Origin: Escherichia phage vB_EcoM_G5211
Length of the DNA: 64,000 nucleotides
Sequence record: MK327947.1
Direction: 5' to 3' (one strand)
The notes beneath the pieces were generated by a model. It worked only from the letters and a program-made list of their open reading frames with translations, was not told the origin of the DNA and ran no database searches. The position numbers were made by a program, and so were the translations under genes. Of the stretch, positions 4,128 to 33,233 are shown piece by piece. Position 1 is the stretch's first letter. Every line of letters starts with the position of its first letter.

Positions 4128-4697
4128 ATGGTTGAAATTCTTCCGATGAGTTCAAAATTGGAGGATATCAGCGAGCGAGAAATCTTTGAGGTGGTGTTCT
4201 CTTATAAAGCAACGCCACCGGATGCAAATACCACATACACGATTAAAGAGTTTAAGATCAGCGAGTATCGCCCTAATAAGGGCGTTACCGTTGAAGAAAC
4301 TAAAATATCTGGTGAGTATAGGGATAGTTTTTCGCTTGGCGCGGATTCTCTTAAATATATAACGAAAGATCGAATTAAAAAATCTGCCGGAAGTTTTGAT
4401 GATTTACCAGATCCAACTACCGCAGATCTATATTATTTTAACGCTCCTACACGTCTACAGGAGGTTTATACTTATAAAGTAACCCTAACCTATATCCAAT
4501 CTGTTTCAGAGTCTTCTGGTGGTTCTGGTGAAGGAAATAGTGGTGGTTCCAGTAGCCGAGAGGGTGCTGGTGAAACTAATCCGCCTCCGGTAGTAACCGA
4601 GCACACAATAGAGAAAGTTTATACTCAAACCGTTTTTGGAAATTGGGATGTGTGGAGTAAACAGTTAAGAGATTATGTTAGAAGAAGTGAGGGATAA
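4128..4697 (+). CDS. Hypothetical protein in gp5.1 position
   Basis: 189 aa ORF directly downstream of gene 5; Gly/Ser-rich middle segment. Confidence 0.5.
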   Translation: MVEILPMSSKLEDISEREIFEVVFSYKATPPDANTTYTIKEFKISEYRPNKGVTVEETKISGEYRDSFSLGADSLKYITKDRIKKSAGSFDDLPDPTTADLYYFNAPTRLQEVYTYKVTLTYIQSVSESSGGSGEGNSGGSSSREGAGETNPPPVVTEHTIEKVYTQTVFGNWDVWSKQLRDYVRRSEG

Positions 4698-4698
4698 T

Positions 4699-5238
4699 AT
4701 GATTGAAGTAATTCATTACACCAAAGAAGATGAAATTTTATATAATAGACTACATGAACTATTTTATGAAGTTGACGGAAAGGTTTATAGAAGGTTCTCT
4801 CGTGGACGTTCTAAAGCCGGAAGTCTAGTTGGTGGATTGAAGATAAATCCATGTGGATATAGATATTGGAGACTTGCTGTTGATGGTAAAGAGTTTCAGA
4901 GGTCTCATGTTGTTTATCATATGCATCACGGACACACTCCAAAAAAACCACTACAAATAGATCATATTAACACAAACTCCCTTGACGACCGAGTTAGCAA
5001 TTTAAGACCAGTAACAGTTACTCAACAAATGTACAACCAAAATAAACAATCCGATTGCACATCTTCATATATTGGTGTTAATTGGAATAAAAATTCCAAA
5101 AAATGGGAAGCTAGAATTAGAGCTAATGGAAAACGAATCCGTTTAGGTCTATTTGATAATGAAATTGACGCTGCGATTGCCTATAACACCGCTGCATTAT
5201 CTAGAGATTCAAAAGTTAACAAATTAAACGATGTATGA
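4699..5238 (+). CDS. HNH homing endonuclease with C-terminal AP2 DNA-binding domain
   Basis: HNH motif (HHGHTPKKPLQIDHINTN...NLR) and AP2-like motif (YIGVNWNKNSKKWEARI...LGLFDNEIDAAIAYN); ATG at 4699 with RBS gaggga; inserted between 5.1 and 5.4. Confidence 0.75.
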   Translation: MIEVIHYTKEDEILYNRLHELFYEVDGKVYRRFSRGRSKAGSLVGGLKINPCGYRYWRLAVDGKEFQRSHVVYHMHHGHTPKKPLQIDHINTNSLDDRVSNLRPVTVTQQMYNQNKQSDCTSSYIGVNWNKNSKKWEARIRANGKRIRLGLFDNEIDAAIAYNTAALSRDSKVNKLNDV

Positions 5239-13121: not shown

Positions 13122-13976
13122 ATGGCACAAGTTCCAAAGAAAAGAATAGACACAGGTACTGTCGGCAATCCATCGACTGGCGATATCTTATATGATGGCG
13201 GTAATAAAATTAACGATAACTTTGATTCAATATATGACGCATTTGCTGATCAACGTCTAAAAGAGATTGATCATGGTGCTGGTCGAATGGTTATTCATGC
13301 CACGGGATACTATCAGAAACACCCACGACAAAGCTATGCAGGGTCGGCGGTAGAGATTGGTAGCTTACATGATATTGACACAACTCAAGGCGCATTAATA
13401 GCAATTCTTCCTAAAGCTAAAGTCGGTGAGGGTGTTGTGTTCATAAATAGTAACGGTAGCTTTTCGGCAACAACACCACTAAACATTAGAACTCAAGCAG
13501 GAGATTCTATTAGCGGGTATTCCGGTGACGCGGTAATAACTCAACCTTTCTCAAAAGTCACCGTCTGGTGTACTGCCGTCGAAGGTAGTAGAGTTACCTG
13601 GCGGCTAGGCATCGAAAGTATGTTTACCGACACAACCACACCACTAGATAGGACAGTTAATGTAACTGGAGTTGCAACCAACGTTGCTATTGCAGCAAAA
13701 ACAGAATATGTATCAATTAAACTATTAACAACCGCTAGCAATACGACGGGTTCAAAAATGCGCTCAAGCGAAACTCTATTGATGATTGATGCCAGAGCCG
13801 GAAAAGTTTACGCGACAGAATATGCGGTTTTACAGAAAACAGAAGACGAATTATACACGGTTCGTTATTTCATTGGTTCCGGCGATAAAGTATATGCAGA
13901 GTATAAGGCTACTGGCGAAAATATTCGTTTAGCAGTTAAAGCCACAGACACTATTAAAATCGGGGTTGCTACATGA
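13122..13976 (+). CDS. 9: gp9 baseplate wedge / long tail fiber socket protein
   Basis: 284 aa (T4 gp9 288 aa); synteny. Confidence 0.8.
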   Translation: MAQVPKKRIDTGTVGNPSTGDILYDGGNKINDNFDSIYDAFADQRLKEIDHGAGRMVIHATGYYQKHPRQSYAGSAVEIGSLHDIDTTQGALIAILPKAKVGEGVVFINSNGSFSATTPLNIRTQAGDSISGYSGDAVITQPFSKVTVWCTAVEGSRVTWRLGIESMFTDTTTPLDRTVNVTGVATNVAIAAKTEYVSIKLLTTASNTTGSKMRSSETLLMIDARAGKVYATEYAVLQKTEDELYTVRYFIGSGDKVYAEYKATGENIRLAVKATDTIKIGVAT

Positions 13977-15775
13977 AACAATTAATTAATATCGGTAACG
14001 TTGTAGATGACGGTACTGGTGATTATCTAAGAAAAGGCGGTCAAAAGATCAACGACAACTTTTCTGAACTTTATACTAAGCTGGGGGATGGAGATACCCC
14101 CCACGCATCCGGTGCATGGAAAACGCATACAGATCCATTATTAAAGCCTAATTTTGGTGATGCGTGGGCTATCAATACAACAAACAACGCGGTGTCGGTA
14201 GAGCTTCCTAAAGGTGGCGTTGGTGATTATAACAAGACAATTAAACTTCGTGATGTTTGGCGCTCGTGGGCGTCTCATAACGTAACACTTAAGCCAGCAC
14301 AAGGTGATACCATTAAGGGATCTCCAATCGACCGTGAGTTGTATAAAGATTTTATGGATGTTGAATTGGTTTATTGTGCGCCTGGACGCTGGGAATATAT
14401 CGAAAATAAGCGAGTTGACACGATCACCACGTCTGACCTAAGCACAGTAGCTAAGGAAGTTTATATTGCCACAGAAGGGCAAACAGATTTCCCTAATGTA
14501 TTTGGTTCTAACACATATAACACTCGAAATGTTGAAGTATATTATCGAGGAAACCTTTTATATTATGGCAAGTCTTTTAGTAATGACTCTAACTACGGTT
14601 CAATCGGTGAGGATGGATCACTTGTTGAACTTGATGGCAAAAGCATAAAACTTCGTTTTCCTTGTTCGGCTGGGGACACCGTTCAAATTATTACATATAT
14701 GGACGGAATTGCATCATTCCGGTCTAGTTATATCACACACACAATTAGAGTGTATGATACCGGAATGACAGCACTAGAAACTATTCCGGGTGAAGTGTGG
14801 GTAGGTGATTTATCGACGAAAAAAGAATTTACCAATGCTGATTTGGGAGTTAGTAAACGTGATATAATTAACCCAAATTCATTTGAGTTATTAATAAATG
14901 GTACTCAAATGATTAAAGCTGGTGATGCTGATCTTCCTTCGTTTGTTTGTGAAGGTGCTGACGGAGAAACCGAAGAGAGTTGCGCACTTGCTGGCGGTCA
15001 GTGGGTACAGTCTGGAGAAGATTATTCACTGGTATTTGATGAGAATAGCATTGTAACAGGGATTAAATTAGCTAAAGCGTTGGACAATAGAGATACTATC
15101 ACAATTCGTTGGTTTAATAACGATATCGGAACTCTATTAGAATGGGATGGTGTCGGCGGAATTAAAGAAAAAGCAGACAAGATTTATCTCAATAACGAAG
15201 ACGAAGTTAATTTAACAAAACAAATTGAATATACCGACTTCCAGAATCCCAGCCAGAAAAACACTCGTCCGGCAGAAGAGTATTCAGGTCGAATTATGGA
15301 TATATATGCACTGTTTGATATTTTCCATCCGATCGGCACGATATACGAAAACGCACATAACCCAGCTAACCCAGCGACCTATATGGGTATTGGTATCTGG
15401 GTTCGGTATGCGGAAGGAGAATTTCTTGCTGGTTGGTCTTCCGATGCCAGCGACCAGAATTTTGCATTAAACAATAACGATCTTGATATTCATGGACAAC
15501 CTACACACACCGCTGGTGGTACTGGTGGTGAAGTTGCCTATCAAATCAAGAAAGATATGATTCCTGAATTACAATCCAGCGATCGTGTTTTGGTGAAAGA
15601 CGATACAGGGTCAATTATCATTGGTGGTTGTCAAGTTGATCCCGATGCGGCAGGTCCAGCGTTTACGAAATATAGAGAGGATATCGTAAAAGTTAATTCT
15701 GGAAATGCTGATCCATCAATGATGGGCATTCTTCCTCCATATCGCACCGTTCATCGCTGGTTAAGGGTAGGTTAA
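13973..15775 (+). CDS. 10: gp10 baseplate wedge protein
   Basis: 600 aa (T4 gp10 602 aa); synteny. Confidence 0.8.
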   Translation: MKQLINIGNVVDDGTGDYLRKGGQKINDNFSELYTKLGDGDTPHASGAWKTHTDPLLKPNFGDAWAINTTNNAVSVELPKGGVGDYNKTIKLRDVWRSWASHNVTLKPAQGDTIKGSPIDRELYKDFMDVELVYCAPGRWEYIENKRVDTITTSDLSTVAKEVYIATEGQTDFPNVFGSNTYNTRNVEVYYRGNLLYYGKSFSNDSNYGSIGEDGSLVELDGKSIKLRFPCSAGDTVQIITYMDGIASFRSSYITHTIRVYDTGMTALETIPGEVWVGDLSTKKEFTNADLGVSKRDIINPNSFELLINGTQMIKAGDADLPSFVCEGADGETEESCALAGGQWVQSGEDYSLVFDENSIVTGIKLAKALDNRDTITIRWFNNDIGTLLEWDGVGGIKEKADKIYLNNEDEVNLTKQIEYTDFQNPSQKNTRPAEEYSGRIMDIYALFDIFHPIGTIYENAHNPANPATYMGIGIWVRYAEGEFLAGWSSDASDQNFALNNNDLDIHGQPTHTAGGTGGEVAYQIKKDMIPELQSSDRVLVKDDTGSIIIGGCQVDPDAAGPAFTKYREDIVKVNSGNADPSMMGILPPYRTVHRWLRVG

Positions 15776-15776
15776 T

Positions 15777-16421
15777 ATGATTTCTAAAACACGTTCTAAA
15801 GCAAGCGTATTTTCTAGCGACGCAGCATTCATTTCATACGATCCGGGGTCGAAAGACCCCATTATTGGTGACATTCGCCCAATTGGTGGATTAAACGTAG
15901 ACCAATCTCGCAAAGGTTCTTTTATTAACAACGTACAATCAGCCATTGATGATTTGTATAGCATTTCTATGCTTAATGTCGGTGATGTATTGGTAACTAC
16001 AAATTCAACTCCACCGGAAGCGGCTGGACAAATAGAAACTCTTTCTTTCACTGGAACGGTAACAAATAAACACGATCCAGCCGCGACAAAAGTTGTAATT
16101 GAAGTTTTGGGTTATCCATTTGTTGTTAATGTTGGAACATCGAATGTTGCATTATGCGAAATGGTCACAACAAAATTTACTGAATTGAAAGACAAAAGTA
16201 TCTTATTCTCTAAAGTTGAGAGGAAAGGTACTGGCAACGATAAAATAGAGATTCAGTATATTGATTCAAACGCACACGAAGCAACGGTCGTAGAAAAATA
16301 TGGTATTAGCGTTCGTGGGGAAATAAATTCCCCTGCTCGTTATGGTTATGGTGCATGGTCCAGATTGGGAACGGAAGAAAAATTTGATTCAACACTATTT
16401 TATTTTAAGCGTATTGCGTAA
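15777..16421 (+). CDS. 11: gp11 baseplate wedge / short tail fiber attachment protein
   Basis: 214 aa (T4 gp11 219 aa); synteny. Confidence 0.8.
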   Translation: MISKTRSKASVFSSDAAFISYDPGSKDPIIGDIRPIGGLNVDQSRKGSFINNVQSAIDDLYSISMLNVGDVLVTTNSTPPEAAGQIETLSFTGTVTNKHDPAATKVVIEVLGYPFVVNVGTSNVALCEMVTTKFTELKDKSILFSKVERKGTGNDKIEIQYIDSNAHEATVVEKYGISVRGEINSPARYGYGAWSRLGTEEKFDSTLFYFKRIA

Positions 16422-16432
16422 GGTGTAAAATT

Positions 16433-17836
16433 ATGAATAACACTATTAATCACGTAAAAGACGATGCACAGTATGTTAAGTTTGACCCTACCGGAAATTG
16501 GCCTAGCAATATAAAAAACGTACAAGCGGCATTAGCCGCTATTCAGGGATTTGCGATTGCAGGTCTTCCAACGGCAACCGAAGAAACAGCGGGTATTGCT
16601 GAAATTGCTACTCAACAAGAAGTAGATGATGGGTTGGATGGAACGAAAATTGTTACCCCAAAAACATTGGCTGTTAAGCTGTCAAGACCGGACGCAACAA
16701 AACTTGTCAAAGGGATCACTCGCTATGCTAATAACGATGAAGCTATGGGCGATACTCCAAATATTGCAATTGGTCCTGATACATTAACCCATGTATTCGA
16801 GAACAAGAAAGCAACGGAAACCGTACAGGGTACAATTAAAATCTGTTCTATGGATGCGGCAAAAATAGGTAGCGATGACACTATGGCAGTAACGCCTAAA
16901 AAGATGCACGCTGCTATTGCTCAGATTGTTCCAGGGTTGATTCCAGAACAAAACACGGCGACCGAGTCCCGTGAGGGTTTAGTTAGACTGGCGACAAGCC
17001 AACAAACGCTTGCTGGTACTATCAGAGAAGGATTTGCCGTTAGTCCATATGCATTTTCCAACGCAAGAGCCAATGAAAATCAGGCGGGTACTGTTAAAAT
17101 TGCCTCATCCCAACAAATGATTGACGGCAATGACAACACAGTAGTAGTATCAGCACAAAAATTTGCGAACACTAAAGCAACCACTGGACAATTCGGTGTT
17201 GTTAAGCTAACAGATAACCCAGGATCAGGCGAGGCAAACACAGCACTGTCGGCAAACGCTCGTGTATTGCCTCTAAGTGGTGGTGTCGTTACTGGTGATG
17301 TGTATCGTCATAGCGGAGGCGACGGAAACCAGTTTATCATTAAAAATGAACTGGATGGTCTTTGTATGCCTATTGGTGGCATCATTCTTACAGCATTTAA
17401 CAGTTTCGACCACGCACAATTCAAAATCTGTAACGGTCAATGGTTAAATAAACACCAATATCCAGTATTATTTTCACGAATCGGTTTCACTTATGGCGGA
17501 GATGGTGGAGACAACTTTGCTCTACCCGATATGCGAGGGCTTGTTGCTAGAGGATGCGACCACGGTCGAGGACTAGACCCAGGTCGTGGATTTGGTACTT
17601 ATCAAGACGACACCATGCAACATATGACAGGTAACTTCCCTGTAGCTAACCGTTGGCGCGGTTGGACTGGTGGTGCATTTGCCATCACAGGCGGTCAATG
17701 GAGCACGAACTATAAAAACGGTGGTGGCGATGATTGGGGTAGTATTGTTAACTTTGACAGCGCAAGACAGGTTAGAACGTCTGGCGAAACTCGCGTTAAA
17801 AGCCTTGCATTAAACTACATGATAAGGGTACAATAA
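16433..17836 (+). CDS. 12: gp12 short tail fiber
   Basis: 467 aa; position between gene 11 and wac; shorter than T4 gp12 (527 aa). Confidence 0.75.
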   Translation: MNNTINHVKDDAQYVKFDPTGNWPSNIKNVQAALAAIQGFAIAGLPTATEETAGIAEIATQQEVDDGLDGTKIVTPKTLAVKLSRPDATKLVKGITRYANNDEAMGDTPNIAIGPDTLTHVFENKKATETVQGTIKICSMDAAKIGSDDTMAVTPKKMHAAIAQIVPGLIPEQNTATESREGLVRLATSQQTLAGTIREGFAVSPYAFSNARANENQAGTVKIASSQQMIDGNDNTVVVSAQKFANTKATTGQFGVVKLTDNPGSGEANTALSANARVLPLSGGVVTGDVYRHSGGDGNQFIIKNELDGLCMPIGGIILTAFNSFDHAQFKICNGQWLNKHQYPVLFSRIGFTYGGDGGDNFALPDMRGLVARGCDHGRGLDPGRGFGTYQDDTMQHMTGNFPVANRWRGWTGGAFAITGGQWSTNYKNGGGDDWGSIVNFDSARQVRTSGETRVKSLALNYMIRVQ

Positions 17837-19605
17837 TGATCGAACAGTTAAACATTCGAAAGATCCCTAACGTCGATGGTGTCCCTGGAGAGGGACAGCA
17901 TTCTATTAGCTGGATTAAAAATGGTGAATGTCTAAGCGCAGCAACCACAGAAACAGGACACGAGGGGACGCTTAACCGCGCCCCTTATGCGATTCAAGAA
18001 AATATTGTTCGTCTGGATGAAAATTCTAAGACAACGGTAACAAAAGTTAACGAAGTTGTTACAGCAGTTAATGATATTAAAACTACTTTAGGCGCGGTTG
18101 CTGATGGTAGTATTATTGATATTGTCAATCAAACTATTGCAAAGGTTGAGTCTGTAGAAGAAAATTTAGGAGAAACTTCAAGGACATTACAAACCACAGT
18201 AGATGAACTGGCGGAGACAGGAAAGAAAATTGGTGTTCGTCCGGCAGCAGATCCGAGTACACGAACAATATATGATGATATTTCTTTCATCAAACAAGAA
18301 TTGGGCGCTTTCCCTAACTTCAATATCAACGGTTCTCCAGATCCGGGTAGTTCCGGTTCCGGTATCAAATATCGAGTTATCCAGAATACGGAAGCATTAA
18401 ACAACCACGGTCAGCGAATCCGCCAACTAGAAAACGACTGGCAAGATTCTGACGTTGGAGAGCTAACAAAACAAGTTAACAAAATGCGAAGCGAGCTAGG
18501 CGATACATCACTAGCAACACAGGACAATGTTTATCTTCGTCTTCGCACAAATACTCGCAATATCGCTAGTATATCAAACGAAGTTCAGGAAGTAAAGAAA
18601 GCGATTCTATTTGAATCAATTCCTGATATCGGGACTAAAGTAACTAAGCTACAATCTGATTATACACAGCTTAATGATGAAGTCAACGGCGTTGACGCTG
18701 GTATCCGTCCTCGTTTAACTCTTCTGGAAAATAATATTGGCAATCCTCAAGCCGCTGGAAGTATTGATTATCGATTGACTAATCAAGAACGGGAATGTGT
18801 AGATCTTAAATCTGTTGTCGGTGTTAGTGGTGCTGATGGCCTACGTGGTGAGGTTGCACGAATATCTAACACAGTTGGTACTGATAGTGAGCGTCATACT
18901 ATCGCAGGTCGTCTAAAAATTGTAGAAAACACACAGGGACGACTAGAAGCTAGCGTACAGGATATCGAGCAAATGATCGGCGATCGAGATTCCGGTCTAA
19001 CCGCCGGGGTTATTAAGCTGTCAAGCGACATGTACGGTAATCCAGAAGGAAGCACGCAGCTTGAACAAGATGGGATCGTGAAAACTGTTAAGGAATTGAG
19101 CACATCCAATGCAAGTAAGGTAACAGACGTTCCTGATGATGGTTTCCATTATCTACGTAAGCACGGGGAATGGGTTCAGGTCGCATGGGCGGCTGGTGCA
19201 TTTAAAAACACCGCTCAGATTGATATTACTCTCGACGGACAAGATCAATACAAAGGAATCCCGCTAAACGATATGACCGAAGAAGTTCCTGCGCGTGGAA
19301 TGGTTAAGAGCGAATCTATTGTTACGGTTAACGACAAAGGCTTATTCCGTTGTGTTTTCCGTTGTTCTGTACATGCTGCACATAACGCTACTTTCGTAGT
19401 CGGTATTGCTAAAAATGGTCAGATTGTACATGAGGTACGAAATGGTCAGTATGGAACTGATGATTTAATTAGCTATTCTACCAGTGCTTTCCTAAATATT
19501 GAAAAGGGCGACCGGATCGATATTCGCATTAAGGGCGTATCCGAAGAAACATTAGCGCAACAGCTACAAATTAAAGAGTTCCTCTTTGGAATTTCTCCGG
19601 TATAA
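17836..19605 (+). CDS. wac: Fibritin (whisker/collar protein) with extra C-terminal domain
   Basis: N-terminus matches T4 Wac pattern (GEGQHSISWIKNGE); coiled-coil middle; foldon-like GFHYLRKHGEWVQV followed by about 135 extra residues. Confidence 0.8.
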   Translation: MIEQLNIRKIPNVDGVPGEGQHSISWIKNGECLSAATTETGHEGTLNRAPYAIQENIVRLDENSKTTVTKVNEVVTAVNDIKTTLGAVADGSIIDIVNQTIAKVESVEENLGETSRTLQTTVDELAETGKKIGVRPAADPSTRTIYDDISFIKQELGAFPNFNINGSPDPGSSGSGIKYRVIQNTEALNNHGQRIRQLENDWQDSDVGELTKQVNKMRSELGDTSLATQDNVYLRLRTNTRNIASISNEVQEVKKAILFESIPDIGTKVTKLQSDYTQLNDEVNGVDAGIRPRLTLLENNIGNPQAAGSIDYRLTNQERECVDLKSVVGVSGADGLRGEVARISNTVGTDSERHTIAGRLKIVENTQGRLEASVQDIEQMIGDRDSGLTAGVIKLSSDMYGNPEGSTQLEQDGIVKTVKELSTSNASKVTDVPDDGFHYLRKHGEWVQVAWAAGAFKNTAQIDITLDGQDQYKGIPLNDMTEEVPARGMVKSESIVTVNDKGLFRCVFRCSVHAAHNATFVVGIAKNGQIVHEVRNGQYGTDDLISYSTSAFLNIEKGDRIDIRIKGVSEETLAQQLQIKEFLFGISPV

Positions 19606-19651: not shown

Positions 19652-20584
19652 ATGTCAGGATATGTAACCAATAACCCAAGAGAATTAAAAGACGCTATTC
19701 TGCGTCGTTTAGGCGCACCAGTAATTAACGTAGAAGTCACAGAAGACCAGATTTACGATTGTATTCAGAGAGCACTAGAACTCTATGGGGAATATCATTT
19801 CGATGGTGTGAATAAAGGATATAAAGTATTTCGTGTTAGTGCAGAGCAAGCGCAACACGGGGTATTTGATTTAAGCGATTCTGGAGTATTCGCAGTAACT
19901 AAAATAATTCGAACAAACGTAGGTAGCGCGGCTACGATGGATGGTACTGCCGTTTATCCGTGGTTTACTGACTTTCTGTTGGGTTTAGCGGGTGTAAATG
20001 GCGGTTTAGGATCTGGCTGTAGTAAATTTTATGGTCCAAATGCAATGGGCGGTGATCTGGGATATTTCGAACAGCTTATGAGCTATCGCGCAACTATGCA
20101 AAATATGCTCAATCCGCTTCCAGATTATTGGTATAATAGCGCAAACGGACAACTTAAGATTACAGGAAACTTCCGAGAAGGTGATCTCATTGTTGTTGAA
20201 TTATATGTTAAAAGCTATATAGACGTTCCTGATATGATCGGTGCGGTTGCTGGTTATGCTCATGCGGGAGGATGTTCTACCGCTGGCGGGATTAGCGCCG
20301 TTTATGATAACCCAACTGCTGGTTTAAGCGGGATTGTTGCTGGCATGGGACCGATCCGTGATAACAAGCAGGGCGCATATAATAACCGTTGGGTTAAAGA
20401 CATGGCAACCGCTTTCACTAAGGAGGTGTGGGGGTCCATCATGGCTAAACATCAAGGTCTGCAATTACCCGGAGGTGTCACTGTTGATGGTATCCGAATC
20501 ATTGAAGAAGCACGCGCCGACATTGAGAAATTGCGACAAGAACTACTTGACTTAGATCCACCATTTGGTATACTAATGATTTGA
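19652..20584 (+). CDS. 13: gp13 neck protein
   Basis: 310 aa (T4 gp13 309 aa); synteny. Confidence 0.8.
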
Positions 20585-20601
20585 TTTATTGGGGGAGTAT
20601 T

Positions 20602-21246
20602 ATGAAAAGACGAAACACATTTTTACGATTGTATGTTACCGAATTTTTATCATCCTCCGGCAAAAAGATATATGGAGGGAAACGACACTCTCCATATAAA
20701 AATTTCGAATCAGACCCGTATGTCGGGTCTGGAGTGATTATAAAACGAGCAATAGAAAAATATGGAAAGGATTGTGTAATTTCCATATCTTGGTCAAAAC
20801 CATTTGAAACACCAGAATTATTGAAAGAGGCCGAAGAATTATTAATAGACGAACTCAAAGACAAATATTCCTATTTTTGCGCTAATTTGGTTAAAGGTGG
20901 ACAAGGTGGTTCATATTATGACAAAGACAAAAATCCACGCGTAGGAAAAAAGAGAACTAAAGAAAGTCGAAATAAAATGTCAGAGGCAGCAAAAAATAGA
21001 AAATGGACAGAAGAAGGGTTGAAACGTAGAATCGAAGCAACAATTAAAATGAAAAAAACAGCAAAAGTCCCAGATTTTTCTGGCGACAAAAATCCAGCCG
21101 CAAAGAAAATACAGGTAGGAGATCTTATTTTTAATACTGGAAAAGAATGCGCGAAATATTTTAATATATGTCAAGCAACGGTCATAGATAGGTGCAAAAA
21201 TCAACGTCCTAAATGGAAAGAATGGAGATATTATGATTCAATATAA
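20602..21246 (+). CDS. Seg-type GIY-YIG homing endonuclease-like protein
   Basis: KIYGGKRHS...DPYVGSG...KRAIEKYG parallels the GIY-YIG core of the ORF at 39653; NUMOD3-like [14 protein letters not shown]; ATG 20602 with RBS ggggag; inserted between genes 13 and 14. Confidence 0.6.
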
Positions 21247-25204: not shown

Positions 25205-27202
25205 ATGACTCTATTATCACCGGGTTTCGAAACGAAAGAAACTACTCTCTCCACTACCATTGTGCAATCTGCGACTGGTCGCGCGGCACTGGTGGGTAAA
25301 TTCCAATGGGGTCCAGCTTTCCAGATTGTTCAAGTAACTAATGAAGTTGAATTAGTTAATAAATTTGGTCAGCCGGATAATAACACCGCAGACTATTTCA
25401 TGAGCGGGGCTAACTTCCTCCAGTATGGCAATGACCTGCGTGTTGTTCGTGTACTCAATAAAGAAAAAGCAAAAAACGCAACTGTCCTAGCTGGTAACGT
25501 AGAGTTTGAAATCACAAACGAAGGTTCTAACTACAAAGTAGGCGATTCAATTAAAGTAAAATACAATCGTCAGGATGTTGAAACCGCTGGCAAAGTAACC
25601 AAAGTAGATACCGAAGGTAAAATTAAAGGTATTTTCATCCCAACCGGGAAAATCATTTCTCTGGCTAAATCCATTGGTGTTTACCCTAATCTGGATGGGT
25701 TTACCGTAGAAATCACTTCCGGCACTGGTAACTCAACTGCGGCAATTACCATTTCCAAAATTGTAACCGATTCCGGTCTTCTCTTAACGGATCTGGAAAC
25801 TTCCCGTGCCAATATCACAAATCAAACTTTCTTGACTAAACTCAAGAAATATGATATGCCAGCGGTAAGTGCAATCTATGCGGGTGAGATCGGGGACTCT
25901 CTGGAAGTCGAGATCCTAGCACGTAGTGCGTTTAAGAACACCGCACCGGATCTGACAATGTATCCTTACGGCGGTACTCGCACCGCAGCACGCAACCTGA
26001 TTCCATATGCACCGCAGAATGATAATCAATATGCGTTTATTGTTCGTCGTGATGGTGTTGTGGTAGAATCCTATGTACTGTCTACTCTGAAAGGGGATAA
26101 AGACGTATACGGCAATTCTATCTATATGGACGACTTCTTTGCTCGTGGTTCTAGCCAGTACATCTATGCAACCGCTCAGGGCTGGGTAGATGGTTTCAGT
26201 GGTATTATCTCTCTTGCTGGTGGTGTGTCTGCTAACGAAGCAACGATCGGTGGAGTTGGTGCTGATCCGTTCATCGGTGCGATGATGCAAGGTTGGGATC
26301 TGTTTGCTGAACGAGAATCTATTCACGTAAACCTGTTGATTGCTGGTGCATGTGCTGGCGAAGGCGATGCGTTCTCTACCGTACAGAAACATGCTGTTTC
26401 CATCGGTGATGAGCGTCAGGATTGCTTAGTAATGGTTTCTCCGCCGCGTAGCACTGTTGTTAATATTCCGGTGACTACTGCAATTGATAACCTGATTGCA
26501 TGGCGCGAAGGTTCAGGAAACTATAATGAAAACAACATGAACATTAATACCACTTACGCGGTTATTGATGGTAACTACAAATATCAGTATGACAAATACA
26601 ACGACGTAAACCGTTGGGTTCCGTTGGCTGCTGATATTGCTGGTTTGTGCGCTCGTACTGATGCTGTATCCCAGCCGTGGATGAGTCCGGCAGGTTATAA
26701 CCGTGGTCAGATCATGAACGTGGTTAAACTGGCAATTGAGCCTCGTAAGGCGCACCGCGATCGTCTGTATCAGGCCGCAATTAACCCGGTAATCGGTGCT
26801 GGCGGTGAAGGGTTTATCCTAATGGGTGATAAAACCGCTACGACTGTTCCTAGCCCGTTTGACCGCATTAACGTTCGTCGTCTGTTTAACATGCTGAAAA
26901 AGAATATCGGCGATTCAAGCAAATACAAACTGTTTGAAAACAACGATAACTTTACTCGCGCTTCCTTCCGTATGGAGGTTTCGCAATATCTCAGCACGAT
27001 TCGCTCTCTGGGTGGCATTTATGACTTCCGAGTACAATGCGACACCACGAATAACACGCCGGATGTAATTGATCGTAACGAATTTGTTGCTAGTATGTTC
27101 ATCAAACCAGCAAAATCGATCAACTATATCATGCTCAATTTCACTGCTGTTGCAACTGGTTCTGATTTTGACGAAATTATCGGTCCAGCTAACCAGGCAT
27201 AA
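25205..27202 (+). CDS. 18: gp18 contractile tail sheath protein
   Basis: 665 aa (T4 gp18 659 aa); synteny. Confidence 0.9.
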   Translation: MTLLSPGFETKETTLSTTIVQSATGRAALVGKFQWGPAFQIVQVTNEVELVNKFGQPDNNTADYFMSGANFLQYGNDLRVVRVLNKEKAKNATVLAGNVEFEITNEGSNYKVGDSIKVKYNRQDVETAGKVTKVDTEGKIKGIFIPTGKIISLAKSIGVYPNLDGFTVEITSGTGNSTAAITISKIVTDSGLLLTDLETSRANITNQTFLTKLKKYDMPAVSAIYAGEIGDSLEVEILARSAFKNTAPDLTMYPYGGTRTAARNLIPYAPQNDNQYAFIVRRDGVVVESYVLSTLKGDKDVYGNSIYMDDFFARGSSQYIYATAQGWVDGFSGIISLAGGVSANEATIGGVGADPFIGAMMQGWDLFAERESIHVNLLIAGACAGEGDAFSTVQKHAVSIGDERQDCLVMVSPPRSTVVNIPVTTAIDNLIAWREGSGNYNENNMNINTTYAVIDGNYKYQYDKYNDVNRWVPLAADIAGLCARTDAVSQPWMSPAGYNRGQIMNVVKLAIEPRKAHRDRLYQAAINPVIGAGGEGFILMGDKTATTVPSPFDRINVRRLFNMLKKNIGDSSKYKLFENNDNFTRASFRMEVSQYLSTIRSLGGIYDFRVQCDTTNNTPDVIDRNEFVASMFIKPAKSINYIMLNFTAVATGSDFDEIIGPANQA

Positions 27203-31649: not shown

Positions 31650-33233
31650 ATGAAAACTACCAAAGAACTGATGGAAAAATGGTCCCCGCTGCTGGAGAAC
31701 GAAAAACTGCCGGAAATCGCAACTGCGTCTAAGCAGAAACTGGTTGCTAAAATTCTGGAATCTCAGGAAGCGGATTTTGCTGTAGACCCGATCTATAAGG
31801 ATGAAAAAGTTGTTGAAGCATTTGGTGGCTTTATCACCGAAGCAGAAGTTGCTGGCGACCACGGTTACGATGCATCCAAAATCGCCGCAGGTCAGACCAC
31901 TGGTGCAATCACCAACGTAGGTCCGGCTGTTATCGGTATGGTTCGCCGTGCTATCCCTAACCTGATCGCATTTGATATTTGTGGCGTTCAGCCGATGAGC
32001 ACTCCGACTAGCCAGATCTTTGCAATCCGTTCTGTATACGGTGGCGATCCGCTGAAATCCGATGCTCGCGAAGCATTCCACCCGATGTTTGCGCCGGATG
32101 TATATCATAGCTCTCTTGCCGCTAAAGACGCAACCGCAAGCTCTCCGACTGGTACTGCATTCCAGAAACTGCAAAACAGCCAAGCAATCAACGAAGGTGA
32201 TATTGTATATCACGTATTCGAACAGACTGGTATTGCATATCTGCAAAACGTTAAAGGTTCTACCGTAACACCTACTCAGGCGGGAGATACCCTTGATGAA
32301 TGCGTAATGAAGCTGATCGAAAAAGGCGAACTGGCTGAAATTGCTGCTGGTATGGCTACTTCCATCGCTGAATTGCAGCAAGGGTTTAATGGTTCTCAGA
32401 ATAACCCGTGGAACGAAATGTCAATGCGTATTGACAAACAGGTTGTTGAAGCGAAATCTCGCCAACTGAAAGCCCGTTACTCTATCGAAGTTGCGCAGGA
32501 TCTGCGTGCTGTACACGGTATGGATGCTGACGCTGAACTGAATGCTATCCTGGCTAACGAAGTTCTGCTGGAAATCAACCGTGAAATCGTTGACGTCATC
32601 AACTTTACCGCTCAGGTTGGTAAGACTGGTATGACTCAGACCGTTGGTTCTAAAGCTGGTGTATTTGACCTGCAAGACCCGATCGATACTCGCGGTGCTC
32701 GTTGGGCTGGTGAATCCTTCAAATCTCTGATCTATCAGATCGACAAAGAAGCTGCTGAAATCGCTCGTCAGACTGGTCGCGGTGCTGGTAACTTTATTAT
32801 CGCTTCCCGTAACGTTGTAAACATTCTGGCTTCTGCTGATCAGGGTATCAGTCTTGCTATGCAGGGTGCTGCACAGGGTCTGAACACCGACACCACTAAA
32901 GCTGTTTTCGCTGGTGTTCTGGCTGGTAAGTATAAAGTATTCATCGACCAGTATGCTCGTCAGGACTACTTCACCGTAGGTTACAAAGGCGACAACGAAA
33001 TGGATGCTGGTATCTACTATGCTCCGTATGTTGCTCTGACTCCGCTGCGTGCAACTGATCCGCAGTCTTTCCACCCGGTTCTGGGCTTCAAGACTCGCTA
33101 CGGCATCGGTATTAACCCGTTTGCAGACAGCAAATCCCAGGCACCGTCCGCTCGCATCACCTCCGGTATGTTGAGCAAAGACAGCGTAGGTAAAAACGCA
33201 TACTTCCGTCGTGTATGGGTTAAAGGTTGCTAA
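31650..33233 (+). CDS. 23: gp23 major capsid protein
   Basis: 527 aa (T4 gp23 521 aa); sequence strongly T4 gp23-like. Confidence 0.95.
   Translation: MKTTKELMEKWSPLLENEKLPEIATASKQKLVAKILESQEADFAVDPIYKDEKVVEAFGGFITEAEVAGDHGYDASKIAAGQTTGAITNVGPAVIGMVRRAIPNLIAFDICGVQPMSTPTSQIFAIRSVYGGDPLKSDAREAFHPMFAPDVYHSSLAAKDATASSPTGTAFQKLQNSQAINEGDIVYHVFEQTGIAYLQNVKGSTVTPTQAGDTLDECVMKLIEKGELAEIAAGMATSIAELQQGFNGSQNNPWNEMSMRIDKQVVEAKSRQLKARYSIEVAQDLRAVHGMDADAELNAILANEVLLEINREIVDVINFTAQVGKTGMTQTVGSKAGVFDLQDPIDTRGARWAGESFKSLIYQIDKEAAEIARQTGRGAGNFIIASRNVVNILASADQGISLAMQGAAQGLNTDTTKAVFAGVLAGKYKVFIDQYARQDYFTVGYKGDNEMDAGIYYAPYVALTPLRATDPQSFHPVLGFKTRYGIGINPFADSKSQAPSARITSGMLSKDSVGKNAYFRRVWVKGC

Follow-up and report, generated by a model that had tools for sequence, protein, structure and literature searches.

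The wac locus and the domain layout of its product

In the 64,000-nucleotide stretch of DNA that was analyzed (the window), an open reading frame on the plus strand at positions 17836..19605 encodes a protein of 589 aa plus the stop codon. The gene was identified as wac, encoding the fibritin of the neck whiskers and collar, by means of the ORF list, the orthologue of phage JSE and the PHROG profile 1056 'fibritin neck whisker', which was matched with E 1.2e-179 over positions 1-574 of 582. It is flanked upstream by the gene for the short tail fiber gp12 (16433..17836, plus strand), whose product matches the Pfam family Collar (E 3.9e-16) and is annotated in this way in JSE and RB49, and downstream by the gene for the neck protein gp13 (19652..20584, plus strand), which was assigned by the annotation of orthologues. 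The end of gp12 and the start codon of wac share one base. The order gp12-wac-gp13 deduced from the ORFs of the window is the same in the annotated phages JSE, RB49, PS2 and 92A1 and on metagenomic contigs. The window is 100% identical to Escherichia phage vB_EcoM_G37-3 (MK327941), which belongs to Krischvirus, the genus of T4-like phages around RB49 and JSE. At the nucleotide level, wac shows 100% identity with MK327941 and 99% with the annotated wac gene of JSE. Its product is labeled 'hypothetical protein' in the GenBank record of G37-3; the identity as fibritin is now established, and the significance of this point beyond annotation is small. The T4 protein gp13 is the anchor protein of fibritin (PMC12929629). 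Compared with its counterparts in nine other isolates, gp13 of G37-3 has an amino acid identity of 97.4 to 99.0%.

Four segments were distinguished on the protein. The N-terminal domain (17836..17985, plus strand; approximately aa 1-50) aligns with T4 fibritin (PDB 2bsg, 1ox3, 2ibl), and a role of this domain in attachment to the neck, i.e. to gp13, has been described (PMC3797505; PMC12929629). It is followed by the shaft (17986..19110, plus strand; approximately aa 51-425), which is collinear with the segmented shaft of T4 and, judged by this homology, is probably a coiled coil as well. The foldon-like segment (19111..19182, plus strand; aa 426-449) was delimited by the Pfam family Fibritin_C, the alignment with T4 and a modeled hairpin. 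The remaining part, hereafter called the head (19183..19602, plus strand; aa 450-589), includes the short linker AWAAG (aa 450-454), continues with AFKNTAQ from aa 455 and ends with ...FGISPV.

Phmmer searches of PDB sequences aligned T4 fibritin (2bsg_A, 487 aa) with wac in two stretches, namely T4 residues 6-436 with aa 7-431 (E 1.5e-51) and T4 residues 456-480 with aa 425-449, while the N-terminal fragments 1ox3 and 2ibl were matched with E ~1e-14. Since T4 fibritin aligns up to aa 449 of wac, aa 450-589 are without a T4 counterpart. Fibritin_C (PF07921) was matched by aa 368-450 over profile positions 2-91 of 93 (E 1.4e-24; 86.5 bits, cut-off 21). Because the match extends to position 91, we concluded that the foldon-like motif GFHYLRKHGEWVQV (aa 436-449, nt 19141-19182) is truly homologous to the foldon region of T4. 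An earlier note on this DNA had described a fibritin of 589 aa, compared with 487 aa in T4, in which a distal domain follows a foldon-like motif. The ORF, the alignment with T4, the Fibritin_C match and the length of the T4 fibritin chains in PDB agree with this description. The extension, given there as about 135 residues from position 19135, measures 140 aa; position 19135 corresponds to Asp434, two residues ahead of the motif. What is new here is the evidence for a foldon that has been kept, with the domain added behind it. Thus, this type of fibritin arose by extension of a T4-like fibritin and not by replacement of its C-terminus.

Predicted fold of the C-terminal domain

A monomer model of aa 421-589 was generated with AlphaFold2 using an alignment of homologues, which had been collected with the full-length protein as query (17 clusters with 30-95% identity, all of 587-589 aa). 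The model reached a mean pLDDT of 87.3 and a pTM of 0.78. It comprises the β-hairpin of the foldon (model residues 18-22 and 25-29, corresponding to aa 438-442 and 445-449) and behind it a sandwich of about ten strands. Sequence searches of PDB with the head alone and with the profile of its family gave no meaningful match, and for this reason a comparison of folds was needed. Foldseek returned 233 PDB matches of the head model at E<=0.001. Among the matches listed were mainly BxpB/ExsFA, C1QL1/3, cerebellin, RANKL, 4-1BBL, EDA, APRIL and BclA, and the phage heads among them were the receptor-binding protein (RBP) of the lactococcal phage 1358, the spike knob of phi812 and the tail fiber of cyanophage A4. 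The fold comparison with BFVD disclosed many C-termini of phage fibers, several of which are annotated as collagen-repeat or C1q-domain proteins.

The head model exhibits the ten-strand jelly-roll β-sandwich with C1q/TNF topology. Pfam scores of wac remained below the thresholds, both for BclA_C (PF18573; 16.0 bits, cut-off 38, E 0.016) and for C1q (PF00386; 15.9 bits, cut-off 23.7, E 0.013). When nine diverse members of the family were inspected, six matched BclA_C at E<=1 (best 2.7e-7) and four matched C1q. As wac lies below the Pfam thresholds and the family profile is without a sequence match in PDB, the head has to be regarded as a relative at the level of the fold and not as a formal Pfam member. 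On the strength of the model, we predict with high confidence that aa 450-589 constitute a C1q/TNF-like jelly-roll head. The structure prediction and fold comparison that had been suggested for this domain thus yielded a fold with receptor-binding heads among its neighbors, and they bear out its description as β-rich. It had also been called Cys-containing. Cys506 and Cys510 are indeed present; both are replaced by Val, Ile, Ala or Thr in relatives, so that they are unimportant. A structural disulfide between them was rejected, since the residues are unconserved and occupy positions i and i+4 on one strand. A literature search yielded no assignment of a C1q/TNF fold to the RB49-type domain, though such an absence is weak evidence. 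The predicted C1q/TNF-like fold appears to be new, and it provides a concrete structural hypothesis for a C-terminal domain that has long been known and has stayed uncharacterized.

Two explanations for the additional domain are directly affected by its fold. The first is that the domain is an intramolecular chaperone, which assists in folding and is then cleaved off in the manner of the peptidase S74 domains known from endosialidases and certain tail fibers. The sole support for this is the general precedent of C-terminal chaperone domains in trimeric phage fibers and the reported dependence of RB49 fibritin folding on its C-terminal domain (PMC3797505). A signature of Peptidase_S74 or of another protease was absent in Pfam searches at E<=1, the fold is predicted to be a C1q/TNF jelly roll instead of the helical S74 chaperone, and the junction between foldon and head, which carries the linker AWAAG or AYAAG, lacks a conserved Ser-Lys cleavage motif. 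A cleaved chaperone of the S74 type was therefore rejected because of the Pfam result and the different fold, and we consider removal of the domain in general to be highly improbable.

The second explanation was already proposed in the earlier note, where the domain was thought to be an accessory receptor-binding or environment-sensing module. According to this idea, the C1q-like knob would be a lectin-like head directed against a surface structure of the host, for example LPS, O-antigen or capsule, and would bring about a reversible pre-adsorption or a sensing of the cell surface, besides or instead of binding to fibers. The structural neighbors speak in its favor. They include the RBP of lactococcal phage 1358, to which GlcNAc is bound, the CBD of the short fiber of cyanophage A-1(L), the receptor-binding domain (RBD) of TM4 gp23 and PRD1 P5, and also a TNF-like lectin of Photorhabdus and fiber tips of Bdellovibrio. 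Moreover, accessory-adhesin roles have already been proposed for other fibritin types: variant C-termini acting in this way are a published idea for the RB43 and Aeh1 types.

Distribution and mosaic structure of wac

Full-length matches to the 1770-base wac gene were obtained by megablast for 57 out of 57 Krischvirus records of the phage collection. Using the 140 aa of the head as query, tblastn also covered it completely in 57 phage records, all of which were of the Krischvirus type, and each of the ten isolates whose gene was extracted and translated possesses a wac product of 589 aa. In none of the 57 records was the head exchanged for a non-homologous tip. A more distant query (P0021) additionally recovered the Serratia phages 92A1 (591 aa) and PS2 (Muldoonvirus, 595 aa), in which the foldon-like motif, the AAG linker, the head and the gp12-wac-gp13 synteny are all preserved. 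Metagenomic relatives with the same architecture have lengths of 587-591 aa, and two of them, P0018 (52% identity) and P0019 (30%), share the same gp9-10-11-12-wac-13-14 locus. Overall, the length of wac ranges from 587 to 595 aa down to identities of 20-30%, always with gp12-wac-gp13 synteny. In P0019, the most distant relative, the foldon has decayed and its GEW is lost, while the head is kept; a tblastn search of phages with this head gave no match. When 1.84 billion representative proteins were searched exhaustively with HMMER for the head alone, fibritins were detected exclusively, apart from one artefact (P0020), which was rejected as the translation of a tandem repeat. With the same query, a word-indexed search for homologues retrieved just two fragments of 110 aa.

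The wac product is approximately 78% identical to that of RB49 (AAP04366) at the amino acid level. Residues 450-589 align with RB49 without gaps at 77% identity and thus represent the expanded C-terminal domain of the RB49 type, which is one of the eight fibritin C-terminal types of Letarov & Krisch 2013 (PMC3797505). Accordingly, a wac product with this terminal domain is the standard, already published RB49-type architecture and typical of the lineage. The domain is hence no peculiarity of this phage. According to the earlier note, its reading would be refuted if related phages throughout had the same length and if the domain was a known structural part of fibritin, and both turned out to be the case.

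To describe the variation of the head, wac genes of ten Krischvirus isolates were aligned without gaps and dN/dS was determined by the method of Nei and Gojobori. In the more distant comparisons, values of 0.07-0.28 were calculated for the head and of approximately 0.08-0.10 for the shaft, which suggests that the head is under purifying selection at these distances. Close pairs gave higher values for the head, based on few changes, namely 2.06 for G37-3 and JSE (seven replacements) and 0.47-0.55 for G37-3 against Makalu_002 and ELT4. Positive selection as a reason for the value of 2.06 was rejected: only seven replacements are involved, and the JSE-specific residues 507, 513 and 529 are common to ELT4 and Makalu_002. 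The value is therefore read as a recombination patch. Among 25 ungapped sequences of 589 aa, 64% of the sites were variable in the head, 69% in the shaft and 60% in the N-terminal domain. The presumed apical loops, which were taken from the DSSP string without coordinates, were as variable as the strands (63% each, Fisher p = 1).

As far as sequence variation can tell, this pattern is unlike that of a hypervariable receptor-binding tip, and several of these data argue against an adhesin. The apical loops are not hypervariable, the variability of the head equals that of the shaft, and the dN/dS values in the more distant comparisons are low. Furthermore, the head was never swapped for a tip of other ancestry, in contrast to gp37, whose distal part is unalignable in many Krischvirus records. 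Members of the sequence family were seen solely among fibritins, and the length is constant.

The region encoding the head contains a zone of staggered recombination breakpoints (19200..19550, plus strand), which was recognized by sliding-window identity and with which the domain distance matrices agree. Identity to G37-3 climbs to at least 95% at approximately position 19,250 in ELT4, 19,330 in Makalu_002, 19,480 in JK32 and 19,550 in RB49 and SSG23. G37-3 and RB49 are 97-100% identical in most parts of the structural region that was compared, whereas from gp9 (approximately 13,200) to a point within wac (approximately 19,500) the identity is just 70-85%. The breakpoint zone is the right edge of this diverged gp9-wac cassette. 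As breakpoints fall within the head region, ELT4 and Makalu_002 have a JSE-type head behind a shaft and foldon of the RB49 type, and in JK32 a third wac allele is located downstream of an RB49-type gp12. This mosaic structure of the wac locus is also new. The deeply diverged wac alleles exchanged among otherwise nearly identical genomes are in line with an adhesin. On the other hand, the divergence of wac belongs to a larger cassette including gp9 to gp12 and may simply be linked to the gp12 alleles. LPS-specific k-mers in gp12 and the fibritin gene have been reported in a preprint.

Putative function of the head and relation to known systems

In T4, the C-terminal end of fibritin touches the long tail fiber near the knee (PMC3797505). 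Within Krischvirus, alleles of the head differ by up to 26%, those of gp34, gp35 and gp36 by up to 8%, and the distance matrices of these phages revealed no co-variation of the head with gp34, gp35 or gp36 (Spearman -0.01 to 0.05). ELT4, for instance, possesses a JSE-like head together with an RB49-like gp36. This outcome lends no support to docking of the fibers and does not refute it either. Consequently, if the knob binds to the fibers, it must do so by positions that are conserved across the head alleles. The gp36 protein has 496 aa, and its match to the T4 gp36 family is limited to aa 57-153. Letarov et al. are said to have observed in 2005 that a novel C-terminus of wac accompanies a novel C-terminus of gp36, with which the restricted match of gp36 agrees.

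The missing co-variation can also be cited in favor of both alternatives to fiber binding. With regard to the adhesin, the arguments on both sides taken together make it an unlikely explanation in our opinion. In a more specific form of the idea, the knob would act as a lectin-like accessory adhesin or sensor on a conserved glycan of the host envelope and couple contact with the cell surface to the release of the retracted long tail fibers. We regard this form as quite improbable; if it held true, whiskers of the RB49 type would be a second organ of host recognition beyond their function as an assembly jig. Hence, the anatomical part of the original interpretation, i.e. a wac product with a foldon and an added β-rich distal domain, is confirmed, while its receptor-binding or sensing role is retained as a candidate.

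The other alternative is that the head is nothing but a folding nucleus, which trimerizes and registers the protein at its C-terminus and stably caps the coiled coil without having a partner in the virion or at the host surface. The fibritin of RB49 forms trimers, and its folding needs sequences of the expanded C-terminal domain, while the foldon alone suffices for folding only in the fibritins of T4 and JS98 (PMC3797505). Heads of the C1q type fulfill such a task in BclA and in collagens VIII and X, which are structural neighbors, and the foldon has decayed in P0019. However, the distal end of T4 fibritin is a functional contact site for the fibers (PMC3797505), and a head of 140 aa, whose sequence including many surface positions is conserved across a wide clade, is larger than a mere nucleus should have to be, as 27 residues of foldon suffice in T4. 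A folding nucleus without any further function therefore seems rather doubtful to us.

We favor the explanation that the head is probably both the obligate-trimer nucleus for folding and registration of the whisker and a distal contact knob. It would top the trimeric coiled-coil whisker, lying coaxial with the foldon that has been kept; the retention of the foldon and the linker of only five residues ahead of the head were counted in support of this explanation. By analogy with BclA, C1q and collagens VIII and X, whose C-terminal heads are of the C1q type, the head may be an obligate trimer, and the trimeric stalk and the foldon just upstream likewise point to a compact trimeric arrangement around a three-fold axis. 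From the C-terminal end, it would nucleate and register trimerization, a role that it may largely have taken over from the small foldon. The decayed foldon of P0019, in which the head is kept, fits the head as the essential trimerization unit, and an added trimer nucleus of the C1q type would explain why the foldon is insufficient in RB49. In the virion, the head would then give the six whiskers (and the collar fibers) a knob at their distal end. There, the knob might make the contact that is made by the foldon end in T4, docking the long tail fiber near the knee during attachment and holding the fibers retracted. The nearly invariant length of wac is what would be expected for a strut reaching a fixed point on the virion. 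Also counted in favor of this explanation were the dN/dS values in the more distant comparisons, a variability equal to that of the shaft without enrichment in the presumed apical loops, the restriction of the sequence family to fibritins and the limited match of gp36 to its T4 family. Counted against the favored explanation were the lack of co-variation, the raised dN/dS of close pairs and the fold class, which is typical of receptor-binding heads. Owing to the predicted C1q/TNF fold, docking of the fibers and accessory adhesion, the two live ideas, are both directly testable.

With T4 fibritin (gpwac; PDB 2bsg, 1aa0, 1avy) the protein has in common the neck-binding N-terminus, a shaft built as a segmented coiled coil and the hairpin of the foldon, and presumably also its place in the virion. 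T4 fibritin stops a few residues past the foldon, whereas the wac product described here carries the head of 140 aa at this position. Its foldon ends at aa 449 compared with 483 in T4, i.e. 34 residues earlier, and a head with a height of a few nm could roughly make up for the difference in whisker length. The heads of BclA, ExsFA/BxpB and C1q as well as the TNF ligands have 9-18% sequence identity to the head and a different biological context; in systems of the BclA/C1q type the stalk is collagen, while here it consists of an α-helical coiled coil and the foldon. The tail-needle knob of Sf6 (gp9, PDB 3rwn) and PRD1 P5 are without sequence relation to the head. Moreover, they reside at the tail tip and the capsid vertex, respectively, where they contact the cell envelope, whereas the head of the whisker is located at the neck. 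The closest known system is the fibritin of the RB49 type (RB49, Phi1, JSE), with which family, architecture, the length of 589 aa and the gp12-wac-gp13 locus are identical, and nothing essential differs. The allele studied here belongs to the JSE group and diverges from the RB49 group by approximately 21% of the amino acids over aa 1-449. Published accounts describe the C-terminal moiety of the RB49 type as 'alien' or 'unrelated to T4', whereas in our analysis a T4-like foldon was found to be retained in front of it.

Exchange of the gp9-wac cassette

Comparison of the window with the genome of the Krischvirus RB49 revealed a 6.3-kb block (13200-19550) exhibiting just 70-85% nucleotide identity, while the rest of the structural region compared was mostly 97-100% identical. 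The block comprises gp9, gp10, gp11, gp12 and wac, and is a diverged cassette of genes for the baseplate periphery, the short fibre and the whisker. It is swapped as alleles between JSE-type and RB49-type lineages. A third wac allele was detected in the isolate JK32, where it resides downstream of an RB49-like gp12.

The cassette is closed by staggered recombination breakpoints (19200-19550), all of which lie inside that part of wac (17836-19605, plus strand) encoding the C1q/TNF-like head of the fibritin (aa 450-589; nt 19183-19602). They were located at approximately position 19,250 in ELT4, 19,330 in Makalu_002, 19,480 in JK32 and 19,550 in both RB49 and SSG23. The final ~35 residues of the head were almost invariant across the ten isolates aligned. 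The exchange of the cassette qualifies the published view that fibritin evolved by slow vertical divergence only.

Two short patches of low identity to RB49 (approximately 75-76% at the nucleotide level) were also found within gp18 (25501-25800) and gp23 (32101-32400), genes which are otherwise 92-100% identical to those of RB49. The patches in the sheath protein (gp18) and in the major capsid protein (gp23) may represent surface-exposed segments that have been exchanged or evolve fast.

In the GenBank record MK327941 of phage G37-3, which the window matches at 100% identity, wac is labelled 'hypothetical protein' and gp12 'putative long tail fiber, proximal subunit'. For this region (16433-19605) the deposited labels are wrong or uninformative.

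Candidate homing endonuclease genes

Between gp13 and gp14, and overlapping both, an ORF encoding 221 aa with a TTG start was identified on the plus strand (20581-21246). A weak match of its product to the DNA-binding domain of I-TevI (E 3.4e-4) suggests that this is a homing endonuclease of the seg type. The ORF is missing at this position in RB49, JSE, UPWr_E1, ELT4, JK32 and SSG23, in all of which gp14 immediately follows gp13. In Makalu_002, gp13 is followed by a gene annotated as SegB, and in KFS-EC by a hypothetical gene of 816 nt. A second ORF (4675-5238, plus strand; 187 aa) is inserted downstream of gene 5.1. By its predicted HNH_3 (E 6.6e-10) and AP2 domains, the product is classified as an HNH homing endonuclease. 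A counterpart of the window segment starting at 4801 was absent from RB49.

A candidate partner and relatives of the whisker head

Outside the window, gp36 of G37-3 (L011:5218-6708) is 496 aa long, while its T4 counterpart has 221 aa. Its match to the Pfam family Phage_T4_gp36 was limited to aa 57-153. The uncharacterised C-terminal remainder of approximately 340 residues is a candidate for the partner to which the whisker knob would bind.

The closest relatives of Wac (P0003-P0006) carried PF28231.1 in addition to Fibritin_C in the precomputed Pfam list. In the most distant relative, the metagenomic P0019 (L023:4001-5767; 588 aa, 30% identity), the foldon motif (...DGSYYIRDNVLTPMTV...) no longer contains its GEW core, but the C-terminal head is retained. 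Among the predicted viral structures in BFVD, A0A1J0MHA5 and A0A7S9SPP9 were closest to the head model. The second of the two is a protein of 594 aa, the other a stand-alone protein of 159 aa from Klebsiella phage KPV15 (25% identity; target-normalised TM 0.75). The protein from KPV15 could represent a homologue of the head that occurs on its own in another T4-like lineage.
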